Of a stretch of 61,708 nucleotides of DNA, positions 4,534-56,301 are shown one piece after another; within the stretch, counting starts at the first letter, position 1, and every line of letters starts with the position of its first letter. The DNA comes from Candidatus Omnitrophota bacterium (GTDB lineage: Bacteria > Omnitrophota > Gorgyraeia > Gygaellales > Profunditerraquicolaceae): the NCBI GenBank assembly GCA_042570405.1, contig JBHPGR010000006.1, positions 1-61,708 on the forward strand, given 5' to 3'. The notes below the pieces were generated by a model. The model was given only the letters and a program-made list of their open reading frames with translations. It ran no database searches and was not told the origin of the DNA. The position numbers and the translations under genes were made by a program.

Positions 4534-4833
4534 GGGCCCTCCCTCGTTGCTGATTCAAATTAGAGTGCAACTCGGGATGGGCTAATGAACTAATAGAGGG
4601 CCCATGGTTCGACTCCGCTCACCATTGGGCTCTGGAAGTTATAGCGGGCCCATAGCTCATACATTAAATTGATAGCGCAGTATGGCTATGGTCCAGCAAC
4701 TAATAGCGGGCCCATAGCTCATACATTAAATTAATAGCGAAGTATGGCTATGGGCTTAGGAAGCAATAGCGGGCCCATAGCTCATACATTAAATTAATAG
4801 CGAAGTATGGCTATGGGCTTAGGAAGTAATAGC
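4534..4833 (+). repeat. Tandem array of five tRNA-Ile-derived hairpin units
   Basis: GGGCCC starts at 4534, 4598, 4646, 4708, 4771 and at the tRNA (4834); last three units carry GGGCCCATAGCTCA, identical to the first 14 nt of the tRNA; each unit is self-complementary. Confidence 0.92.
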
Positions 4834-4905
4834 GGGCCCATAGCTCAGCGGTAGAGCAGGTGACTCATAATCACTTGGTCGGAGGTTCGATCCCCCCTGG
4901 GCCCA
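4834..4905 (+). tRNA. tRNA with CAT anticodon, probably tRNA-Ile2 (lysidine)
   Basis: GGGCCCA/TGGGCCC acceptor, GGTGA-CT-CAT-AA-TCACT anticodon arm, GTTCGAT T loop, no encoded CCA; acceptor sequence is Ile2-like rather than Met-like. Confidence 0.85.
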
Positions 4906-6633: not shown

Positions 6634-7389
6634 ATGTCAGGCCATTCAAAATGGAAGACGAATAAATCGAGGAAGAATGCGGCCGATGCCAAGAGGGGGG
6701 CGGCCTTTACTAAGATCATCAAGGAGATAGTGGTCGCCGCACGCGAGGGGGGCGGTAATCCTGAAGTCAACCCCAGGCTGCGCACAGTGATCTCCCGGGC
6801 AAGGGAATTGAATATGCCCAATGATAACGTAAAGACAGCGATCATGCGCGGCACAGGAGAGTTGCCCGGCATTACTTATGAGAGCGTCTCCTACGAGGCC
6901 TACGGACCTGCGGGAGTAGCTATCCTGATAGAGGCGCTTACCGATAATAAAAACCGTACCACAGCAGAGGTACGTAATATCATGTCTAAGAAGGGTGGAA
7001 ACCTTGCCGGGGGAGGTTCGGTCAATTGGATGTTTACCAAAAAGGGATATATCCTGATCGAGAAGAGCCAGATCGGAGAAGACGAGCTGATGACAATCGC
7101 CTTGGATGCCGGCGCCGAGGATTTTAAGGCGGATCAGAAAAACTACGAAATATTCACTTCAGTGCAGGATTTTGAAAAGGTCAAAAAGGCGATCCAGGAT
7201 AAGGGGATCAAGTGTCAGTTCGCAGAATTGACGATGATCCCGTCATCTGTGGTCAAGGTGAGTGGTAATGACGCCAAATCCCTGTTGGGCCTGATCGATA
7301 GCCTTGAGGATCACGATGACGTACAACAGGTCTATGCTAATTTTGATATCCCTGATGAGGTCCTGGAGAAGATGGGCAGCAGCTCATAG
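6634..7389 (+). CDS. yebC: YebC/PmpR family protein
   Basis: MSGHSKW, YEAYGPAG, TDNKNRT, DHDDVQQVYAN. Confidence 0.95.
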   Translation: MSGHSKWKTNKSRKNAADAKRGAAFTKIIKEIVVAAREGGGNPEVNPRLRTVISRARELNMPNDNVKTAIMRGTGELPGITYESVSYEAYGPAGVAILIEALTDNKNRTTAEVRNIMSKKGGNLAGGGSVNWMFTKKGYILIEKSQIGEDELMTIALDAGAEDFKADQKNYEIFTSVQDFEKVKKAIQDKGIKCQFAELTMIPSSVVKVSGNDAKSLLGLIDSLEDHDDVQQVYANFDIPDEVLEKMGSSS

Positions 7390-7878: not shown

Positions 7879-8504
7879 TCGTAAAGATTTCAGGTAAGGT
7901 CAGGCAAAAAAACGCAAACGCTGTTGTCGTAGAGGTCTCAGGGATCTCTTACGAGGTCCTGCTTCCAACGGCCGTAATGCAGAGACTGCAGGATAAAATT
8001 GCCGGTCAGAGCGATGTCAGCCTGATCACTTATCATTATCTTGCCAGCGAGCCATCGAAGAGCACGCCGGTGCTGATCGGCTTCTTAAGTGAAGTCGAGA
8101 AAGATTTTTTTGAAACATTTATTACGGTATCCGGGATCGGACCGCGCGCAGCCTTAAGGGCATTAAGCCAGCCGATATCACTGATCGCTCATGCGATCGA
8201 TGACGGCAACACGGAATTCTTGAGGTCACTTCCGGGAATAGGCCAGCAGCGGGCAAGGGAGATCGTAGCCAAGCTTCAGAATAAAGTAGGAAGGTTCGGC
8301 TTGATCCGGGATGATAAATTACAGCAGCAGGAGGCCAGGGCCAGCGGTGCCGAGCAGGAGGCGCTGGCGGTTTTACTGCAGCTGCAGTATAAGAAGTCCG
8401 AGGCAGAGGTGATGATCCAGAGAGCGCTAAAAGGAGAAAGGAAAATCGATTCTACGGAAGAGTTACTTAACGAGGTATATAAACAAAAAAAGCATGTCAG
8501 ATAA
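7875..8504 (+). CDS. ruvA: Holliday junction branch-migration protein
   Basis: GISYEV, VSGIGPR and LPGIG HhH motifs, C-terminal ALAVL..L.Y domain. Confidence 0.92.
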   Translation: MIVKISGKVRQKNANAVVVEVSGISYEVLLPTAVMQRLQDKIAGQSDVSLITYHYLASEPSKSTPVLIGFLSEVEKDFFETFITVSGIGPRAALRALSQPISLIAHAIDDGNTEFLRSLPGIGQQRAREIVAKLQNKVGRFGLIRDDKLQQQEARASGAEQEALAVLLQLQYKKSEAEVMIQRALKGERKIDSTEELLNEVYKQKKHVR

Positions 8505-9078: not shown

Positions 9079-10099
9079 TAAGAGTATTGTCGGTCTTTTG
9101 AACCAGCGTGCCGGGATCACCCGAAAGATCGGGACTCTTAAGCGAGGCAGCGGAGGAGGCGTCTATTCGCCTGACCGGGAGCAGGATGTATTAAAAAGGA
9201 TCTCTTGCCAGAACCGCGGCCCCTTGACCAGCGATGGCCTGAAGGCGATCTACCGTGAGGTGATGTCATGTTCGCTCTCTGCAGATAAGAATCTCCGGTT
9301 AGCTTACCTAGGCCCCGAGGCGACCTTCACCCACCTGGCAGCGCTAAAGAGGTTTGGTTCACAGGTAGAGTACATGGCTTGCAAGAACATCTCGGATGTC
9401 TTTCTAAAGGTGGCAAGGGATAACGCCGATTACGGAGTCGTCCCGATAGAGAACACGATCGAGGGAGTAGTCAGCCACACGCTGGATATGTTCATCGATT
9501 CTGACCTTAAGATCTGCGCCCAGATTATCCTGGATGTTTCGCACAACCTGATGGCGAACTGTTCAAAAAACAGCATCAAGAGGGTGTATTCCAACCCGCA
9601 TGTCTTCGGGCAGTGCAGGCTCTGGTTGCAGGAGAACCTTCCATGCGCAGAGCTGATAGAGGTCTCAAGTACGACCCGCGCAGCCCAGATCGCCGCTAAA
9701 ACTAAAGCAGCCGCTTGTATCGGGTCTTCTCTGGCTGCCAGAGTCTATAAACTAAAGATCATCGCGCGCGGTATCGAGGATTCTCCGCACAACATAACGC
9801 GCTTCTTAGTAATCGCTAAGATCGATGTCCCGGCAACCGGCGACGACAGGACATCGGTGATGTTCTCGATAAAGGACAGGGTGGGAGCCCTACACGATAT
9901 GCTCTTGCCTTTCAAGAGGAATAAGATCAATCTGACCAAGATCGAATCGAGGCCCTCTAAAAAGAAGGCTTGGGATTATTATTTCTATGTGGATTTTAAG
10001 GGCCACAAGGATAATCCGCGCGTGCGAATAGCGCTGTCGCAGTTGGAGAGTAAATGTAAGTTCTTAAAAGTCCTCGGGTCATACCCGATGGGAGAGTAG
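9038..10099 (+). CDS. pheA: Chorismate mutase/prephenate dehydratase
   Basis: Start moved to MKLKNLR (GGAGG RBS); CM domain, YLGPEATFT, PIENTIEG, TRFLV, INLTKIESRP. Confidence 0.95.
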   Translation: MKLKNLRHQINKLDKSIVGLLNQRAGITRKIGTLKRGSGGGVYSPDREQDVLKRISCQNRGPLTSDGLKAIYREVMSCSLSADKNLRLAYLGPEATFTHLAALKRFGSQVEYMACKNISDVFLKVARDNADYGVVPIENTIEGVVSHTLDMFIDSDLKICAQIILDVSHNLMANCSKNSIKRVYSNPHVFGQCRLWLQENLPCAELIEVSSTTRAAQIAAKTKAAACIGSSLAARVYKLKIIARGIEDSPHNITRFLVIAKIDVPATGDDRTSVMFSIKDRVGALHDMLLPFKRNKINLTKIESRPSKKKAWDYYFYVDFKGHKDNPRVRIALSQLESKCKFLKVLGSYPMGE

Positions 10100-10102
10100 A
10101 GT

Positions 10103-11194
10103 ATGCTTGAGTTTGTCAGGAAGAATATCATCGGTTTAAAGCCTTATATCGCCGGAAAGCCTATAGAGGAGACGAAGAGGGAGTTTCGGCTGAAGCAGGT
10201 GGTAAAACTTGCTTCAAACGAGAACCCGATCGGACCTTCTCCAAAGGCAAAGGTTGCGATCAGAAAGGCATTGTCGGGGCTGAACCGTTATCCGGACAGC
10301 CAGGGGTATTGCCTTAAAAAACGGCTGGCGCGGATGCTTCGCGTCCAGGATTCCAACATCGTCTTAGGCAACGGTTCTGACGAACTGATCGACGTGATCA
10401 TTAAGACCTTTGTCGAGGACGATCAGAATATCGTTACTGCCGATGTGACTTTCCTGGAGTACGCAATCATCTCTCGTGTCAATGACCGCAGGGTGATCAC
10501 GGCGCCCCTGCGCTACTTTAAGTTTGACTTAGAGGCGATAAGGTCGAAGATCGACGCCAAGACCAAGCTTGTGTTTATTGCTAATCCCAATAATCCGACC
10601 GGTACTTATGTCGGCAAGGTTGAGTTGAAGGAGTTCCTCGGCAGCATCCCGAAGAGTGTCTTAGTGGTGCTTGACCAGGCATATGATGCCTTTATTGACG
10701 TCGATGATTTCCCGCTTAATTTGGACTTTCGCAGGTATAATAACCTGATCGTGTTAAAGACTTTCTCCAAGGCCTTTGGCCTGGCGGGATTGCGTATAGG
10801 GTATTGCATCGCCCGCCCGGAGTTTGTCAATTTCATGGAGCGGGTAAGACAGCCATTCAACGTGAATTCACTGGCTCAGAAGGCCGCACTTGCCGCCCTT
10901 GACGATAAAGCCTTCCTCAAAAAAACGCGCAGAGTAATCCTTAAGGGGAAGAGTTACCTTTACCAGCGCCTGGCTTCACTGGGAGTCAGCTATGTGCCCA
11001 GTGTTGCCAATTTTATCTTAGTTGATGTCGGGCGCGACAGCAGAGAAGTCTTTAAGGAGATGCTTAAAGGAGGCGTGATCGTCAGAGATATGCGCCAGTA
11101 CCGGTTGAAGAACTTTATCCGCGTGACTATCGGAACAAAAAAAGAAAATCGGAAGCTGATCAAAGTTTTAAAGAGTGTACTTTTAAAGAAGTAA
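10103..11194 (+). CDS. hisC: Histidinol-phosphate/aromatic aminotransferase
   Basis: [36 protein letters not shown]. Confidence 0.92.
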
Positions 11195-32039: not shown

Positions 32040-32461
32040 TGAGTAAAAATAGAGTAACTTTAGAAGAGGCGGAAAAATTTCACGGTCATTTAGGCCCGTA
32101 TTTAATATTAGGCATTATAGCAGGTGATATAGCTTTAAATAACCTTAGATGTAAGAAGTACTTTGGTTTAGAGGTTAAGGTTTGGGGTGTTAATAGAAAA
32201 CCCAAGTCTTGTTTAGTAGATGGCCTACAGTTATCTACAGGTGCGACTTATGGTAAAGGAAATATTATTAAATTAAATAGCCCTATGATTAAAATAGAAT
32301 TTACTAATTGTAAAAATCGAAAAAAAATCGTCCTAAGATGCAAGGGTGATCTTATGAAAAAGTTAGAATCAACAAAAAACCACAGAGATTGCGAATCATT
32401 AGCAAGAAGATTGTATAGTACAGATTGCGGCAAGCTTTTTAACTTGCAACTTACTACTTAA
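32039..32461 (+). CDS. FmdE family protein
   Basis: FHGHLGP...G, SC.VDG.Q..TGAT.GKGN; visibly AT-rich. Confidence 0.85.
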   Translation: MSKNRVTLEEAEKFHGHLGPYLILGIIAGDIALNNLRCKKYFGLEVKVWGVNRKPKSCLVDGLQLSTGATYGKGNIIKLNSPMIKIEFTNCKNRKKIVLRCKGDLMKKLESTKNHRDCESLARRLYSTDCGKLFNLQLTT

Positions 32462-53923: not shown

Positions 53924-54752
53924 GTCGCATAAAGGCCACTTCGGGCATCTTTTCGCAATAGCCGGTTCAGCAAGATTCTCGGGGGCAGCGGCTCTTTGCG
54001 CGGAGGCAGGTCTTCGCTGCGGCGCAGGGCTTGTGACCCTGGGGATACCAAAAAGCCTAAACAGTTCTTTGATAAAGATTAAGCCTCTTGAGGTGATGAC
54101 CCTGCCGCTTCAGGAAACGCCTGACAAGAGTTTAAGCCTATCGGCCCTGAAGAGGATCAAGGGTTTTGTTAAGAAGGGACTTATACTTGTTATCGGGCCG
54201 GGCTTAGGCAGGAACGGATCAACGCAGCAGCTTGTGCGCAGGATGATTTCAGAGATACGCTCCCCCATGGTGATCGATGCCGACGGGTTAAACGCTTTAG
54301 TAGGTCATCTAGAGCTTTTACGAAATAACGAAACAACGAAAAAGCGAGAAACGGTCTTAACTCCCCACCCCGGTGAAATGTCGAGGCTGACCGGAGCGAG
54401 CACTAAGGCAGTGGCGAAGAACAGAAGAAAAGCCGCAAAGAAGCTGGCGCGCGATTACAGGGTTACGGTTGTTTTAAAGGGGCACAATACGGTAGTCGCT
54501 GATTGCCGTGGTAATTTATACGTCAATAAGACCGGGAATCCCGGGATGGCCAAAGGCGGAAGCGGAGATGTACTGGCCGGAATGATCGGTGCATTTTTGG
54601 GGCAGGGCTTGAAGGCTTTTGCTGCGGCAAAGTATGCGGTTTACTTGCACGGCCTCGCCGGCGACCTGGCGGCAAAAAAGAAGACTCAGGTCGGGATGAT
54701 CGCAACAGATATAATCAAAGAAATACCTGCGGCGATCAGGAAGTGTTCTTAA
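53886..54752 (+). CDS. nnrD: ADP-dependent NAD(P)H-hydrate dehydratase
   Basis: HKG.FG, GPGLG, DADGLN, TPHPGE, LKG..T, GGSGDVLAG. Confidence 0.93.
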   Translation: MRLPTRLLQRNAKSHKGHFGHLFAIAGSARFSGAAALCAEAGLRCGAGLVTLGIPKSLNSSLIKIKPLEVMTLPLQETPDKSLSLSALKRIKGFVKKGLILVIGPGLGRNGSTQQLVRRMISEIRSPMVIDADGLNALVGHLELLRNNETTKKRETVLTPHPGEMSRLTGASTKAVAKNRRKAAKKLARDYRVTVVLKGHNTVVADCRGNLYVNKTGNPGMAKGGSGDVLAGMIGAFLGQGLKAFAAAKYAVYLHGLAGDLAAKKKTQVGMIATDIIKEIPAAIRKCS

Positions 54753-54766
54753 AATTAGGGGAGTTT

Positions 54767-54842
54767 GCCGGCGTAGCTCAGTTGGTAGAGCAGCGGTTTT
54801 GTAAACCGCGGGTCGGGGGTTCGATCCCTCTCGCCGGCTCCA
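54767..54842 (+). tRNA. tRNA-Thr(TGT)
   Basis: GCCGGCG/CGCCGGC acceptor, GCGGT-TT-TGT-AA-ACCGC, ends TCCA. Confidence 0.95.
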
Positions 54843-54858
54843 GAAAAAGAGATGTTGT

Positions 54859-54944
54859 GGGCAGGTACCCAAGTGGCCAAAGGGGACAGACTGTAAATCT
54901 GTTGCGCTTGCGCTTCAGAGGTTCGAATCCTCTCCTGCCCACCA
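54859..54944 (+). tRNA. tRNA-Tyr(GTA)
   Basis: GGGCAGG/CCTGCCC acceptor, ACAGA-CT-GTA-AA-TCTGT, long variable arm, ends ACCA. Confidence 0.95.
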
Positions 54945-54982
54945 GCTTTTGTTTCGCAAAAGCGCAGTCCCGAAAAGTAATA

Positions 54983-55219
54983 ATGCAGGAAAAGAAGGGA
55001 TTCAGTTTAGTCTATTCAACTCCGAACTCCGCGCAGGTAGCGATCATTAAATCTATTCTGATCGGTACCGATATCCCCTTCTTTGTAACTAATGAGAATT
55101 TTCACAACCTTTACGGAAGCGCAAACGGGCTTACGGCGATGGGGATCATGGTCGCAAGCGAAAGGTTGGAGGAAGCCAAGGAATTACTGGGTAGTTTTAT
55201 TGATCCTAAGGCAAAATAG
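54983..55219 (+). CDS. DUF2007-like small protein
   Basis: Start moved to MQEKK; A.IIKSIL...DIP.F..NE...I.V.....EEAKELL pattern. Confidence 0.7.
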   Translation: MQEKKGFSLVYSTPNSAQVAIIKSILIGTDIPFFVTNENFHNLYGSANGLTAMGIMVASERLEEAKELLGSFIDPKAK

Positions 55220-55225
55220 CAATCT

Positions 55226-55448
55226 GCGGGCATAGCACAGCGGCAGTGCAGTAGCCTTCTCCCGCTACGATATTGATTGATGCGGGGTTTCGCCTTAAGG
55301 TATGATATACGAAGGCTCAACAAGCTACCAAGAGAAGGGGGATTTGCGGGAGTAGTTCAGTGGTAGAACAATAGCCTTCTCCCGCTTCGGTATTGATTGA
55401 TGCGGGATTTCGCCTCTAAGTGTAATATGCGAAGGCTCAACAAGCTAT
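55226..55448 (+). repeat. Two tandem tRNA-Gly 5' halves, each with a 61-nt insert in the anticodon
   Basis: 55226-55259 identical to tRNA-Gly nt 1-34; inserts at 55260-55320 and 55380-55440; both resume CAAGCTA and then lack T arm and 3' acceptor. Confidence 0.88.
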
Positions 55449-55460
55449 ATAACAAGTAGT

Positions 55461-55534
55461 GCGGGCATAGCACAGCGGCAGTGCAGTAGCCTTCCAAGCT
55501 ACCTACACGGGTTCGAGTCCCGTTGCCCGCTCCA
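55461..55534 (+). tRNA. tRNA-Gly(TCC)
   Basis: GCGGGCA/TGCCCGC acceptor, GTAGC-CT-TCC-AA-GCTAC, GTTCGAG, ends TCCA. Confidence 0.93.
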
Positions 55535-55542
55535 AGATAAAG

Positions 55543-56301
55543 ATGGCGCACACACAGAGAGAATTCTTAGAGCCGGTTTTTATAGACGCCTTTGACCTGG
55601 ACGACGCCTGGTTTCAGGCCCTTAACTGCATCCTTGATAAGGGGCATGTTTATACGATCACAAAAGGCAGTTATGAGGGGCAGAGGCGCCTGGAGTTTGA
55701 TTTTGTGGTGGTGCGCGTGCGCAAGCCATCGCACCAGATCATTCCGATAATCCCCGAGGGGATGAGTATACCCGCCCCTACGGATATGGATTATATACAA
55801 GGTTACCTGGGCTATCTGATCACCGGGGCAAAGACCGAGACCGAAGACTACACCTACGGCGAGAGATTGGTCGATCCGAAAGTAAAAGCAAAAGTCGAGG
55901 TAGGCGGTAAAGAGATGGTCAAGGAGATGCCGCTTCAGGTCAACCAGATCGAAGAGATCATCAAGATTTACAAAGAAAAAGGCCCGGGAACGAACCAGGC
56001 GATCATGGAGATCGGAATGCCATCCGATATAAAATTAACTGATCCGCCCTGCCTGCGCCTGATCGATACCCGGATCCGCTACGGTAAGCTGCATTTTATA
56101 CTCTATTTTCGCTCATGGGACCTCTGGGGCGGTTTCCCCTCAAACATGGGAGGGTTGCAGCTGGTAAAGCAGTACATCGCAGAGGAGATCGGCGTCGGAG
56201 ACGGAGAGATCGTCGCTGTCAGTAAGGGGCTGCACCTTTATGAGTACAGCTGGGAACTGGCAAAGATCAGGACAAATAAATACAGCATGGAGATAGGCTA
56301 A
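55543..56301 (+). CDS. thyA: Thymidylate synthase family protein (short, archaeal-like)
   Basis: YTYGER, NQ, DPPCL, YFRSWD..GFP.N, LHLY. Confidence 0.75.
   Translation: MAHTQREFLEPVFIDAFDLDDAWFQALNCILDKGHVYTITKGSYEGQRRLEFDFVVVRVRKPSHQIIPIIPEGMSIPAPTDMDYIQGYLGYLITGAKTETEDYTYGERLVDPKVKAKVEVGGKEMVKEMPLQVNQIEEIIKIYKEKGPGTNQAIMEIGMPSDIKLTDPPCLRLIDTRIRYGKLHFILYFRSWDLWGGFPSNMGGLQLVKQYIAEEIGVGDGEIVAVSKGLHLYEYSWELAKIRTNKYSMEIG

Follow-up and report, generated by a model that had tools for sequence, protein, structure and literature searches.

A two-hairpin repeat in the loops of tRNA gene fragments in one family of Omnitrophota

The 61,708-nt contig JBHPGR010000006.1 of a “Candidatus Omnitrophota” bacterium (GenBank assembly GCA_042570405.1), referred to below in its whole length as the window, carries two tandem 5′ parts of tRNA-Gly(UCC) genes, each broken within the anticodon by a 61-nt insert, upstream of an intact tRNA-Gly(UCC) gene (Table 1). 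What is this insert, here called element E, and how did it come to lie in broken tRNA genes? A preliminary description of the window, made from the sequence alone, suggested a site-specific mini-element that targets tRNA genes or, alternatively, a small RNA with a tRNA head; its coordinates and sequence statements for positions 55226 to 55534 are borne out by our own reading of the sequence, by repeat searches, and by tRNA calls. E looks like an undescribed tiny selfish DNA element, not an intron. With moderate confidence, we interpret it as a non-coding, non-autonomous insertion repeat that operates at the DNA level and lives in redundant fragments of tRNA genes.

Two broken tRNA-Gly genes with a common insert

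The two 5′ halves are dead, truncated copies (tRNA positions 1 to 43 and 1 to 45, respectively) of two alleles of tRNA-Gly(UCC), and both lack the T arm and the 3′ strand of the acceptor stem. The head of copy 1 belongs to the allele of the window's intact gene, and the head of copy 2 is 74% identical across a 35-nt repeat that counts the base preceding each head. In both units, E lies between anticodon positions 35 and 36, i.e., after the second anticodon base, and the remaining 3′ strand of the anticodon stem fits the head of its own unit, GTAGC pairing with GCTAC in copy 1 and ATAGC with GCTAT in copy 2, just as had been pointed out in the preliminary description. The two inserts (55260 to 55320 and 55380 to 55440) are 87% identical over 68 nt (E-value, 7.5e-18), and the two units share 82% identity over 102 to 106 nt. 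Copy 2 still gives a partial match to the Rfam tRNA model over its acceptor and D arm (55346 to 55386; 22.8 bits, with a cutoff of 29). The earlier view that the locus keeps two genuine alleles also stands: the copy 2 head represents the commonest intact allele in the family (85 places at 100% identity over positions 1 to 34 among the matches listed, mostly one per genome), and the copy 1 allele is found as an intact gene in 14 of 203 genomes, some of which have no upstream fragment.

A sequence lodged in an anticodon loop, with the stem pairing kept across it in both copies, recalls a tRNA intron or the joint of a split tRNA whose halves would be spliced, possibly in trans, into a working tRNA-Gly. 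Known cases include bacterial group I introns, whose catalytic core takes ~200 nt or more, and archaeal bulge-helix-bulge introns and split or tri-split tRNA-Gly genes; the adjacent location of different 5′ halves of one tRNA adds to the likeness. Still, the chance that this is the explanation appears next to negligible. Unlike those genes, the Gly units have no 3′ exon, partner half, ribozyme core, or splicing endonuclease. In silico excision of the inserts yields no new tRNA, no intron or ribozyme family is matched in Rfam at E-values up to 10 (positions 54500 to 56000), and the EndA-type endonuclease (PF01974) was not found in the host genome in a search that did match all 4 archaea among 14 control genomes. 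The 61-nt insert is also far below the size of a group I intron. The preliminary description had proposed a search for orphan 3′ halves and for full-length tRNA-Gly genes containing the insert. BLAST of tRNA-Gly against the host genome (G000, a 1.27-Mb bin of 66 contigs that is 65% complete) recovered the 5′ duplicate only and thus none of the former; nor was there a complete gene among the E hosts examined, including the 32 best matches in relatives (trivial cases set aside). The nearest to a complete host, a Met copy in G221, has no acceptor 3′ strand. Because the hosts are always dead fragments and never a complete gene, an intron-like nature or a spliced product is unlikely.

It might also be argued that the array is an artifact, in which strain variants were joined chimerically and collapsed into a tandem array that does not exist, given that the source is an incomplete metagenome bin and that repeats of this kind do break assemblies (contig ends in G013, runs of N in G071 and G124). 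We judge this very improbable: independent assemblies of at least 16 other genomes show the succession of foreign-allele head, E, stub, spacer, and intact gene; the array is flanked by unique genes, 6 kb away from the end of its contig; and the two units differ at 18% of positions and so are not collapsed copies.

Table 1. Layout of the tRNA-Gly(UCC) array in the window
Feature	Positions	Strand	Remarks
Copy 1 head, tRNA-Gly(UCC) positions 1 to 34, allele of the intact gene	55226..55259	+	34/34 identical to 55461-55494 (BLAST E-value, 2.8e-13)
Element E copy 1, 61 nt	55260..55320	+	Model R1, 50.7 bits, E-value 4.3e-12; fold z -2.3
H1 pairing of E copy 1	55260-55265 with 55282-55287		
Linker of E copy 1	55288-55291		
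H2 pairing of E copy 1	55292-55296 with 55312-55316		
Tail of E copy 1, TCAA	55317-55320		
Copy 1 stub, tRNA positions 35 to 43 (remaining anticodon loop and 3′ stem strand), 9 nt	55321..55329	+	9/9 identical to 55495-55503, then diverges
Spacer 1, 16 nt	55330..55345	+	No tRNA similarity
Copy 2 head, tRNA-Gly(UCC) positions 1 to 34, commonest intact-gene allele in the family	55346..55379	+	
Element E copy 2, 61 nt	55380..55440	+	Model R1, 52.6 bits, E-value 1.3e-12; 87% identical to copy 1
Copy 2 stub, tRNA positions 35 to 45, same allele as its head, 11 nt	55441..55451	+	Matches the intact gene in relatives, e.g., G160 and G065
Spacer 2, 9 nt	55452..55460	+	
Intact tRNA-Gly(UCC), CCA encoded	55461..55534	+	ARAGORN; Rfam tRNA, 68.5 bits

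Structure of element E

No Rfam family matches the insert, and BLAST of the insert against 60 relatives gave chance-level matches only, so that a sequence pattern and a covariance model were needed. The model (R1) was built from an alignment of 18 E copies, 10 of the 28 pattern hits having been omitted by script for want of a perfect 5-bp second hairpin; its E-values are rough. E is non-coding, roughly 40 to 110 nt long, and consists of two hairpins, H1 (TCCCGC-loop-GCGGGA) and H2 (GCCNN-loop-NNGGC, with covarying NN), joined by a YTTC linker and followed by a tail that is mostly TCAA. The H1 and H2 positions pair in 97.7% of alignment cells versus 90.3% in shuffles, none of 500 of which reached the observed value, and 27 to 50% when the pairing is slid. 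One H2 pair is GC in 7 copies, AU in 5, CG in 4, and UA in 2, with no unpaired cells. Folded alone, the two Gly inserts have z-scores of −2.3 and −2.1, with 5 and 4 of 200 shuffles, respectively, folding equally well.

Several details read from the two Gly copies do not extend to the family. For the second hairpin, the preliminary description had proposed TTCG/CGAA, and relatives back GCCNN/NNGGC instead. The complementarity of the terminal GAAGGCT to the AGCCTTC preceding the break is peculiar to the host genome, the relatives having GGGGCT or GCGGCT at that place. The suggested pairing of CTCCCGC with the acceptor 5′ strand holds at 7 of 7 positions for copy 2 but at only 5 of 7 for copy 1; TCCCGC belongs to the element itself, since it also begins E in fragments of Pro, Trp, Leu, Met, Arg, Glu, and Gln.

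With E taken out, the sequences on either side join precisely into an anticodon or T loop of 7 nt, with no target duplication. The left flanks vary (CTTC, GGTT, GGTTC, TTTT, TCAA, and CCTACC), the tail is often TCAA, and there are hairpins near both ends; the inverted repeat TCCCGC/GCGGGA closes H1 only, not both ends of the element. Two other origins of this sequence were considered and set aside. A decayed copy of tRNA-Gly agrees with E, by eye, at just 6 or 7 of 13 or 14 positions and leaves its presence in other tRNAs unexplained, and the RYYYAAC-like end of the G000 copies, which recalls integron attC sites, is not conserved, with TCAT or TCG in relatives.

Distribution of element E

E is largely confined to one Omnitrophota family. 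Of 101 family genomes with a completeness of at least 90%, 55 have R1 matches, with 1 to 11 copies each; outside the family, such matches occur in only 4 of 141 genomes of a phylum-wide sample, one of these at a tRNA. The strict pattern of H1 plus linker occurs in 19 of 202 other genomes of the family and in none of 30 from other families of the order; the reversed pattern, used as a control, has no matches. Of the 24 strict-pattern places, 22 rejoin into a tRNA loop, and the remaining two are unclear.

The host genome has 12 R1 matches (E-value of ≤1), all within ~150 nt of a tRNA gene: two each at Gly, Arg-ACG, Gln-UUG, and Met (the Met pair overlapping on opposite strands) and one each at Arg-UCG, Glu-CUC, Glu-UUC, and Ser-GCU. 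In the window, the two Gly copies are the only ones. The motif GGGNYTTCGCC, taken from the Gly insert next to its first hairpin, lies within 400 nt of a tRNA in 7 of its 12 matches in the host genome; at the places read, E was again present with identical ends in loops of tRNA fragments.

Positions of element E in tRNA fragments

The contexts of 52 matches were assigned by reading their flanks, with ARAGORN assisting. Among the best matches in relatives, 31 of 32 occupy a loop (D, anticodon, or T) of a recognizable tRNA fragment (Gly-UCC, Gly-CCC, Glu, Pro, Trp, Leu, Met, fMet-like, Lys, Gln, or Arg), and one is intergenic; among 20 weaker matches from other genomes, 11 are in such loops, 1 directly precedes a tRNA-Ser gene, and 8 are elsewhere. 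Fragments of Gly-UCC, Gly-CCC, and Glu-UUC have a common E site, between anticodon positions 35 and 36, and in the T loop E follows position 55 or 56. Its orientation is opposite to that of the tRNA in Gln and Lys fragments and, in G220 and G221, at the identical Gly site (model E-value, ~0.01), and there are multiple insertions within a single fragment in G185 and on contig C17 of the host genome. The notion of a tRNA-targeting mini-element thus survives in part: E is indeed a small, discrete element whose ends are defined and which turns up repeatedly at tRNA sequences, but it is specific for neither Gly nor the anticodon. It occupies all three kinds of loop (D, anticodon, and T), in both orientations, in fragments of at least nine kinds of tRNA, with some copies away from tRNAs.

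Away from the working gene, the tRNA sequence of a fragment runs to its end; toward the gene, only 7 to 13 nt, approximately one stem, are kept beyond E. Downstream of tRNA-Arg(UCG) in the host genome, a fragment made up of the T arm and the acceptor 3′ strand is split by E in the T loop and is followed by a second, unsplit Arg 3′ half.

An orphan initiator-like tRNA-Met 3′ fragment with E in its T loop is present in three species of one genus (L117, L109, and L119); at the first of these loci (G211; positions 1440 to 2868), it lies directly after a tyrosine integrase gene, in an att-site-like arrangement. In G116, two E matches 1,071 nt apart belong to a 120-nt repeat that precedes two small open reading frames (ORFs), with no tRNA.

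Arrays and alleles at the tRNA-Gly locus

Among relatives, the tRNA-Gly tract is hypervariable. A Gly head joined to E is seen in at least 16 of 202 relatives, and 23 Gly loci were read in relatives. The spacer between tRNA-Tyr and tRNA-Gly has no fragment in G188, G201, and G212. A short form, found in G179, G073, G200, G072, and G134, consists of the head, TCCCGCC, and 15 to 18 AT-rich bases, H1 being closed by the intact gene's own GCGGG. A single genus includes genomes in which the fragment is absent (the first three listed above), short (G179 and G200), or provided with extra hairpins (G185). Identical tandem units occur in G124 and G071, mixed arrays in G134 and G160, and full units at other loci. 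In G155, G097, and G072, Gly 3′ halves lie downstream of the intact gene, with a common break site and E or H1 at the break. All intact Gly genes are self-consistent alleles.

This architecture invites another reading, in which each unit is a miniature integrative cassette or the scar of a site-specific recombination event and the tRNA fragments are attL/attR-type sites, with the crossover in the anticodon or T loop. E would then be the site at which a tiny unit (E, stub, spacer, and tRNA end) recombines, or an arm of that unit, with a recombinase moving it in trans, and arrays would form as successive arrivals displaced the previous tRNA end. The geometry of the fragments is that of att sites, with the distal part of the tRNA complete and the proximal side reduced to a stem, and the breaks are in loops, where tRNA-targeting integrases reportedly cross over. 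The 5′ heads upstream and 3′ halves downstream of the Gly gene in G155, G097, and G072 have the same 34/35 break, the fragment allele is unlike that of the resident gene at 9 of 15 loci, identical tandem units are common, and in G211 the orphan tRNA-fMet fragment adjoins an integrase gene. We nevertheless consider this reading unlikely. E sits inside the loop, that is, within the would-be crossover region and not beside an intact core; the intact genes show no head/tail hybrids; the “element” between fragment and gene amounts to merely 9 to 25 nt; a recombinase or integrase ORF of at least 100 amino acids is found within 800 nt of E at only 2 of 52 loci; and E occurs away from tRNAs as well. 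A further idea, which strikes us as quite unlikely, is that E marks the working site of an unrecognized structure-directed system of DNA breakage and joining that opens tRNA genes at their loops and installs replacement alleles next to the broken pieces. If that were true, the tRNA genes of these bacteria, whose genomes are small, would be turned over by cassette exchange, and the upstream heads and downstream tails would record past alleles.

Copies outside tRNAs and the possibility of a functional RNA

Five copies outside tRNAs precede a start codon by 0 to 14 nt, all in the sense orientation; in four, the final bases are AGGTG, which resembles a Shine-Dalgarno sequence. This variant (host contig C26, positions ~7102 to 7145, and loci L155, L162, L163, and L149) ends in AGGTGCTCAA at 4 of the 5 places, and the genes behind it include glmS in the host genome and argininosuccinate-synthase-like and translation-GTPase-like genes in relatives. 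It may supply the ribosome-binding site of these genes.

Such copies raise the question of whether E is a functional RNA structure of pre-tRNA leaders and trailers and mRNA 5′ leaders, with a role in processing, stability, or expression, as in the “tRNA-headed small RNA” of the preliminary description; the surrounding tRNA pieces would then belong to a structured leader that is transcribed. Compensatory changes keep the two hairpins across genera, orthologous copies persist between genera (at Arg-ACG in G000 and G080 and at Pro in G013 and G097), and the fragment heads are often pristine. On the other side, whole units fold no better than shuffles (z-scores of −0.4 and −0.65), E is antisense at Gln, Lys, and some Gly sites, copy numbers in the arrays vary, and Rfam has no matching family. 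No clear excess of promoters or terminators was seen at the Gly locus, and we conclude nothing from the scan of positions 54700 to 55650, which returned two of each against ~0.9 expected; a perfect −35/−10 pair was seen by eye in G031 and is not general. E is missing from many close relatives with the same gene order, and this patchy distribution argues against an indispensable RNA. We regard a functional RNA as distinctly improbable.

Search for a mobilizing enzyme

Genes of the Y1_Tnp family are found in 90 of 101 relatives, with 1 to 9 copies each, which is a large number for genomes of 1 to 2.7 Mb. These frames, ~136 to 430 amino acids long, resemble REP-associated tyrosine transposases (RAYTs), and the repeats that flank them are mostly built on GGGAC..GTCCC (loci L173 to L192). 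A search for PF04986 (Y2) found nothing in the host genome and also nothing in 14 control genomes and is hence uninformative; rolling-circle transposition of the IS91 type, whose target, CAAG/GAAC, resembles many E flanks, is left unsupported by this search. Around E, 121 ORFs (within 800 nt, at 52 loci) were inspected. Three of them resemble recombinases or nucleases: a serine recombinase, the tyrosine integrase next to the orphan fMet-like fragment, and a PD-(D/E)XK nuclease. A GIY-YIG cassette was considered and rejected, no such domain being found among these ORFs at an E-value of ≤1e-5. A casposon-like mechanism with a target duplication of fixed length was ruled out by the duplicated tRNA pieces, which range from 14 nt to more than 55 nt.

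Several of these results, together with others, weigh against E as a mobile repeat. No Y1 transposase was found in the host genome, 65% complete as it is, which has only two tyrosine recombinases, both of Xer size. In the family, the presence of Y1_Tnp is uncorrelated with that of E, five E genomes having none; E was never within 1 kb of a Y1 gene (0 of 20 examined), and 9 of 10 Y1 loci examined are flanked by different inverted repeats of their own, 26 to 62 nt long. Recombinase- or nuclease-like ORFs account for just 3 of the 121 near E. The 7- to 13-nt fragment ending toward the intact gene would not be predicted by chance insertion into pre-existing fragments, and simple local duplication does not explain the mismatch between fragment and intact-gene alleles at 9 of 15 Gly loci. 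Within a genome, the copies have stems but not loops in common and are therefore old; the kept stems could equally mean function. Finally, confidence in the assembly of the array comes from the like architecture in other genomes and not from reads: the best word share among the sequencing runs was 0.11, and the X1, X2, X3, and X5 contigs over positions 55100 to 55700 are from other organisms, cover only the tRNA-like parts and the thymidylate-synthase-like gene, and are uninformative on this point.

A possible history of the arrays

As an insertion repeat, E would enter the single-stranded loops (D, anticodon, or T) extruded by the DNA of tRNA genes, in either orientation and without target duplication. 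In a working single-copy tRNA gene, such an insertion would be lethal, and the surviving copies would be those in redundant fragments or in intergenic or 5′-leader positions. The unit of fragment, E, and spacer could then be copied, lost, shortened, or exchanged by recombination between repeated tRNA pieces, with short repeats such as GCGGGA also serving as substrates. The predicted outcome is an intact gene preceded by an array of broken 5′ copies or followed by one of broken 3′ copies. The anatomy of the units, the family of related copies with its conserved hairpins, their location in loops in both orientations, and their presence or absence among relatives are direct observations; the mobility of E and the way in which tRNA fragments first arise are what we infer.

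tRNA debris across the host genome

Broken tRNA pieces are not limited to the Gly locus. In the host genome, 14 of 38 tRNA genes have E or debris of their own next to them. Copies of 14 to 34 nt from the gene head lie upstream of Met(CAU), Gly(UCC), Arg(ACG), and Lys(CUU), and tail copies of 16 to 26 nt lie downstream of Trp, Arg(CCU), Gln(CUG), and Pro(UGG). The tail duplicates at Arg-CCU and Trp run 10 to 20 nt past the tRNA 3′ end, which points to duplication at the DNA level and rules out a retrocopy origin.

Exact 14- to 26-nt copies of their own 5′ or 3′ ends stand alongside Arg-ACG (C9:21586-21872), Lys-CUU (C9:28632-28767), Gln-CUG (C10:9850-10258), Pro-UGG (C20:1828-2067), Trp (C7:32099-32367), and Arg-CCU (C8:5373-5564). 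Between such end copies there are structured modules of 46 to 169 nt, some of them in identical tandem units. One GC-rich module is common to the trailers of tRNA-Gln(CUG) and tRNA-Trp (C10:~9860-10180 and C7:~32250-32340): GGGGTGACAG ... CCAGAGGGG ... CCCTATGGGGAG. A repeat of ~50 nt with a perfect hairpin (AAGGAGAGAA..TTCTCTCCTT) lies beside tRNA-Trp, tRNA-Glu(UUC), and tRNA-Phe (C7:~32180-32240, C26:~6830-6870, and C30:~8090-8140). At C9:17980-17999, 20 nt are identical to the D-arm region of several tRNAs, outside the called tRNA genes.

In the window itself, positions 4578 to 4833 hold 3 to 5 tandem units of 62 to 63 nt (the “Ile array”), each of which opens with 14 bases identical to the start of the tRNA(CAU) gene (4834 to 4905); this head folds back to pair with a complementary segment farther along the unit, and there is no E motif. 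The protein-coding neighbors in the window are housekeeping genes for NAD(P)H-hydrate dehydratase, a DUF2007 protein, a thymidylate-synthase-like protein, and GpsA. The DUF2007 gene (80 amino acids; 54977 to 55219) separates tRNA-Tyr from the Gly array; as the gap between tRNA-Tyr and tRNA-Gly is ~9 to 330 nt in relatives, this gene seems to have been inserted. At six loci in relatives (L055, L058, L064, L091, L094, and L136), the tRNA-Tyr gene that precedes tRNA-Gly appears, by eye, to be split by a long structured insert; that of the window (54859 to 54944) is uninterrupted.

Comparison with known systems

Short non-coding hairpin repeats of low to moderate copy number include repetitive extragenic palindromes and their doublets (REP/REPIN) with RAYT, the Rickettsia palindromic elements, and palindrome-associated transposable elements (PATEs) derived from IS200/IS605. 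Such small palindromic repeats make no target duplication, show compensatory changes in their stems, and are tolerated only where insertion is harmless. E resembles all of them in being short, non-coding, hairpin-forming, and dispersed, in the lack of target duplication, in its compensated stems, and in its restriction to harmless sites; as in REP/REPIN, its short palindromes include some intergenic copies. It differs from small palindromic repeats in its two different hairpins with a conserved linker and tail and in its main location, inside the loops of tRNA fragments, at only 1 to 11 copies per genome. Unlike REP/RAYT, it has no cognate Y1, the RAYT-like Y1 genes of the family being flanked by other repeats and not by E. 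PATEs derived from IS200/IS605 insert 3′ of a fixed tetra- or pentanucleotide, make no target duplication, and have subterminal hairpins; E shows no duplication and has hairpins near both ends, its left flanks vary with no conserved tetranucleotide, and it may or may not be of this kind. From the classical miniature inverted-repeat transposable element, it is distinguished by the absence of both terminal inverted repeats spanning the two ends and a target-site duplication.

The hosts of E can be compared with the tRNA fragments found at attachment sites. Part of the study by van der Gulik et al. (2023; PMC9897764) describes partial tRNA genes at the ends of integrated elements, with copies 9 to 23 kb apart, and presents tRNA fragments as ends of such 9- to 23-kb elements or as CRISPR spacers. 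The E-bearing fragments have in common with att sites the partial copy beside a complete one, the breaks in the anticodon or T loop, and a possible foreign allele; they also hold a stem-loop-stem core plus the distal end, i.e., positions 1 to 43 or 1 to 45 upstream or everything from the stem to the 3′ end downstream. In contrast to att sites as portrayed in that part of the study, they are separated from the gene by a gap of 9 to 25 nt plus E, compared with 9 to 23 kb, and the loop itself is interrupted. They also form arrays of identical 94- to 172-nt units, with no integrase at 50 of 52 loci.

Distal to the Escherichia coli tyrT gene there are tandem partial duplications, 178-bp repeats that each contain the tRNA 3′ end. 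The E units are likewise tandem and bounded by a piece of the adjacent tRNA gene, and by analogy with the tyrT repeats, unequal recombination likely drives their copy number. They depart from the tyrT case in the conserved hairpin element at each break, in the 14 of 38 tRNA genes affected, and in the foreign alleles.

Our full-text literature searches found no description of small hairpin elements inside the loops of tRNA fragments. We file E as a kind of small palindromic dispersed repeat with an unusual niche, the element itself being apparently new.

Implications

The tRNA fragments described here mislead tRNA annotation and break metagenome assemblies at tRNA genes. They also preserve older or foreign tRNA alleles and so offer a handle on allele turnover in uncultured lineages. 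The E family is compact and has a usable covariance model, which makes its enzyme, its RNA products, and its movement searchable in new complete genomes of Omnitrophota. If E is mobile, it would be a selfish element with an unusual target, the loops of the hairpins formed by tRNA genes.

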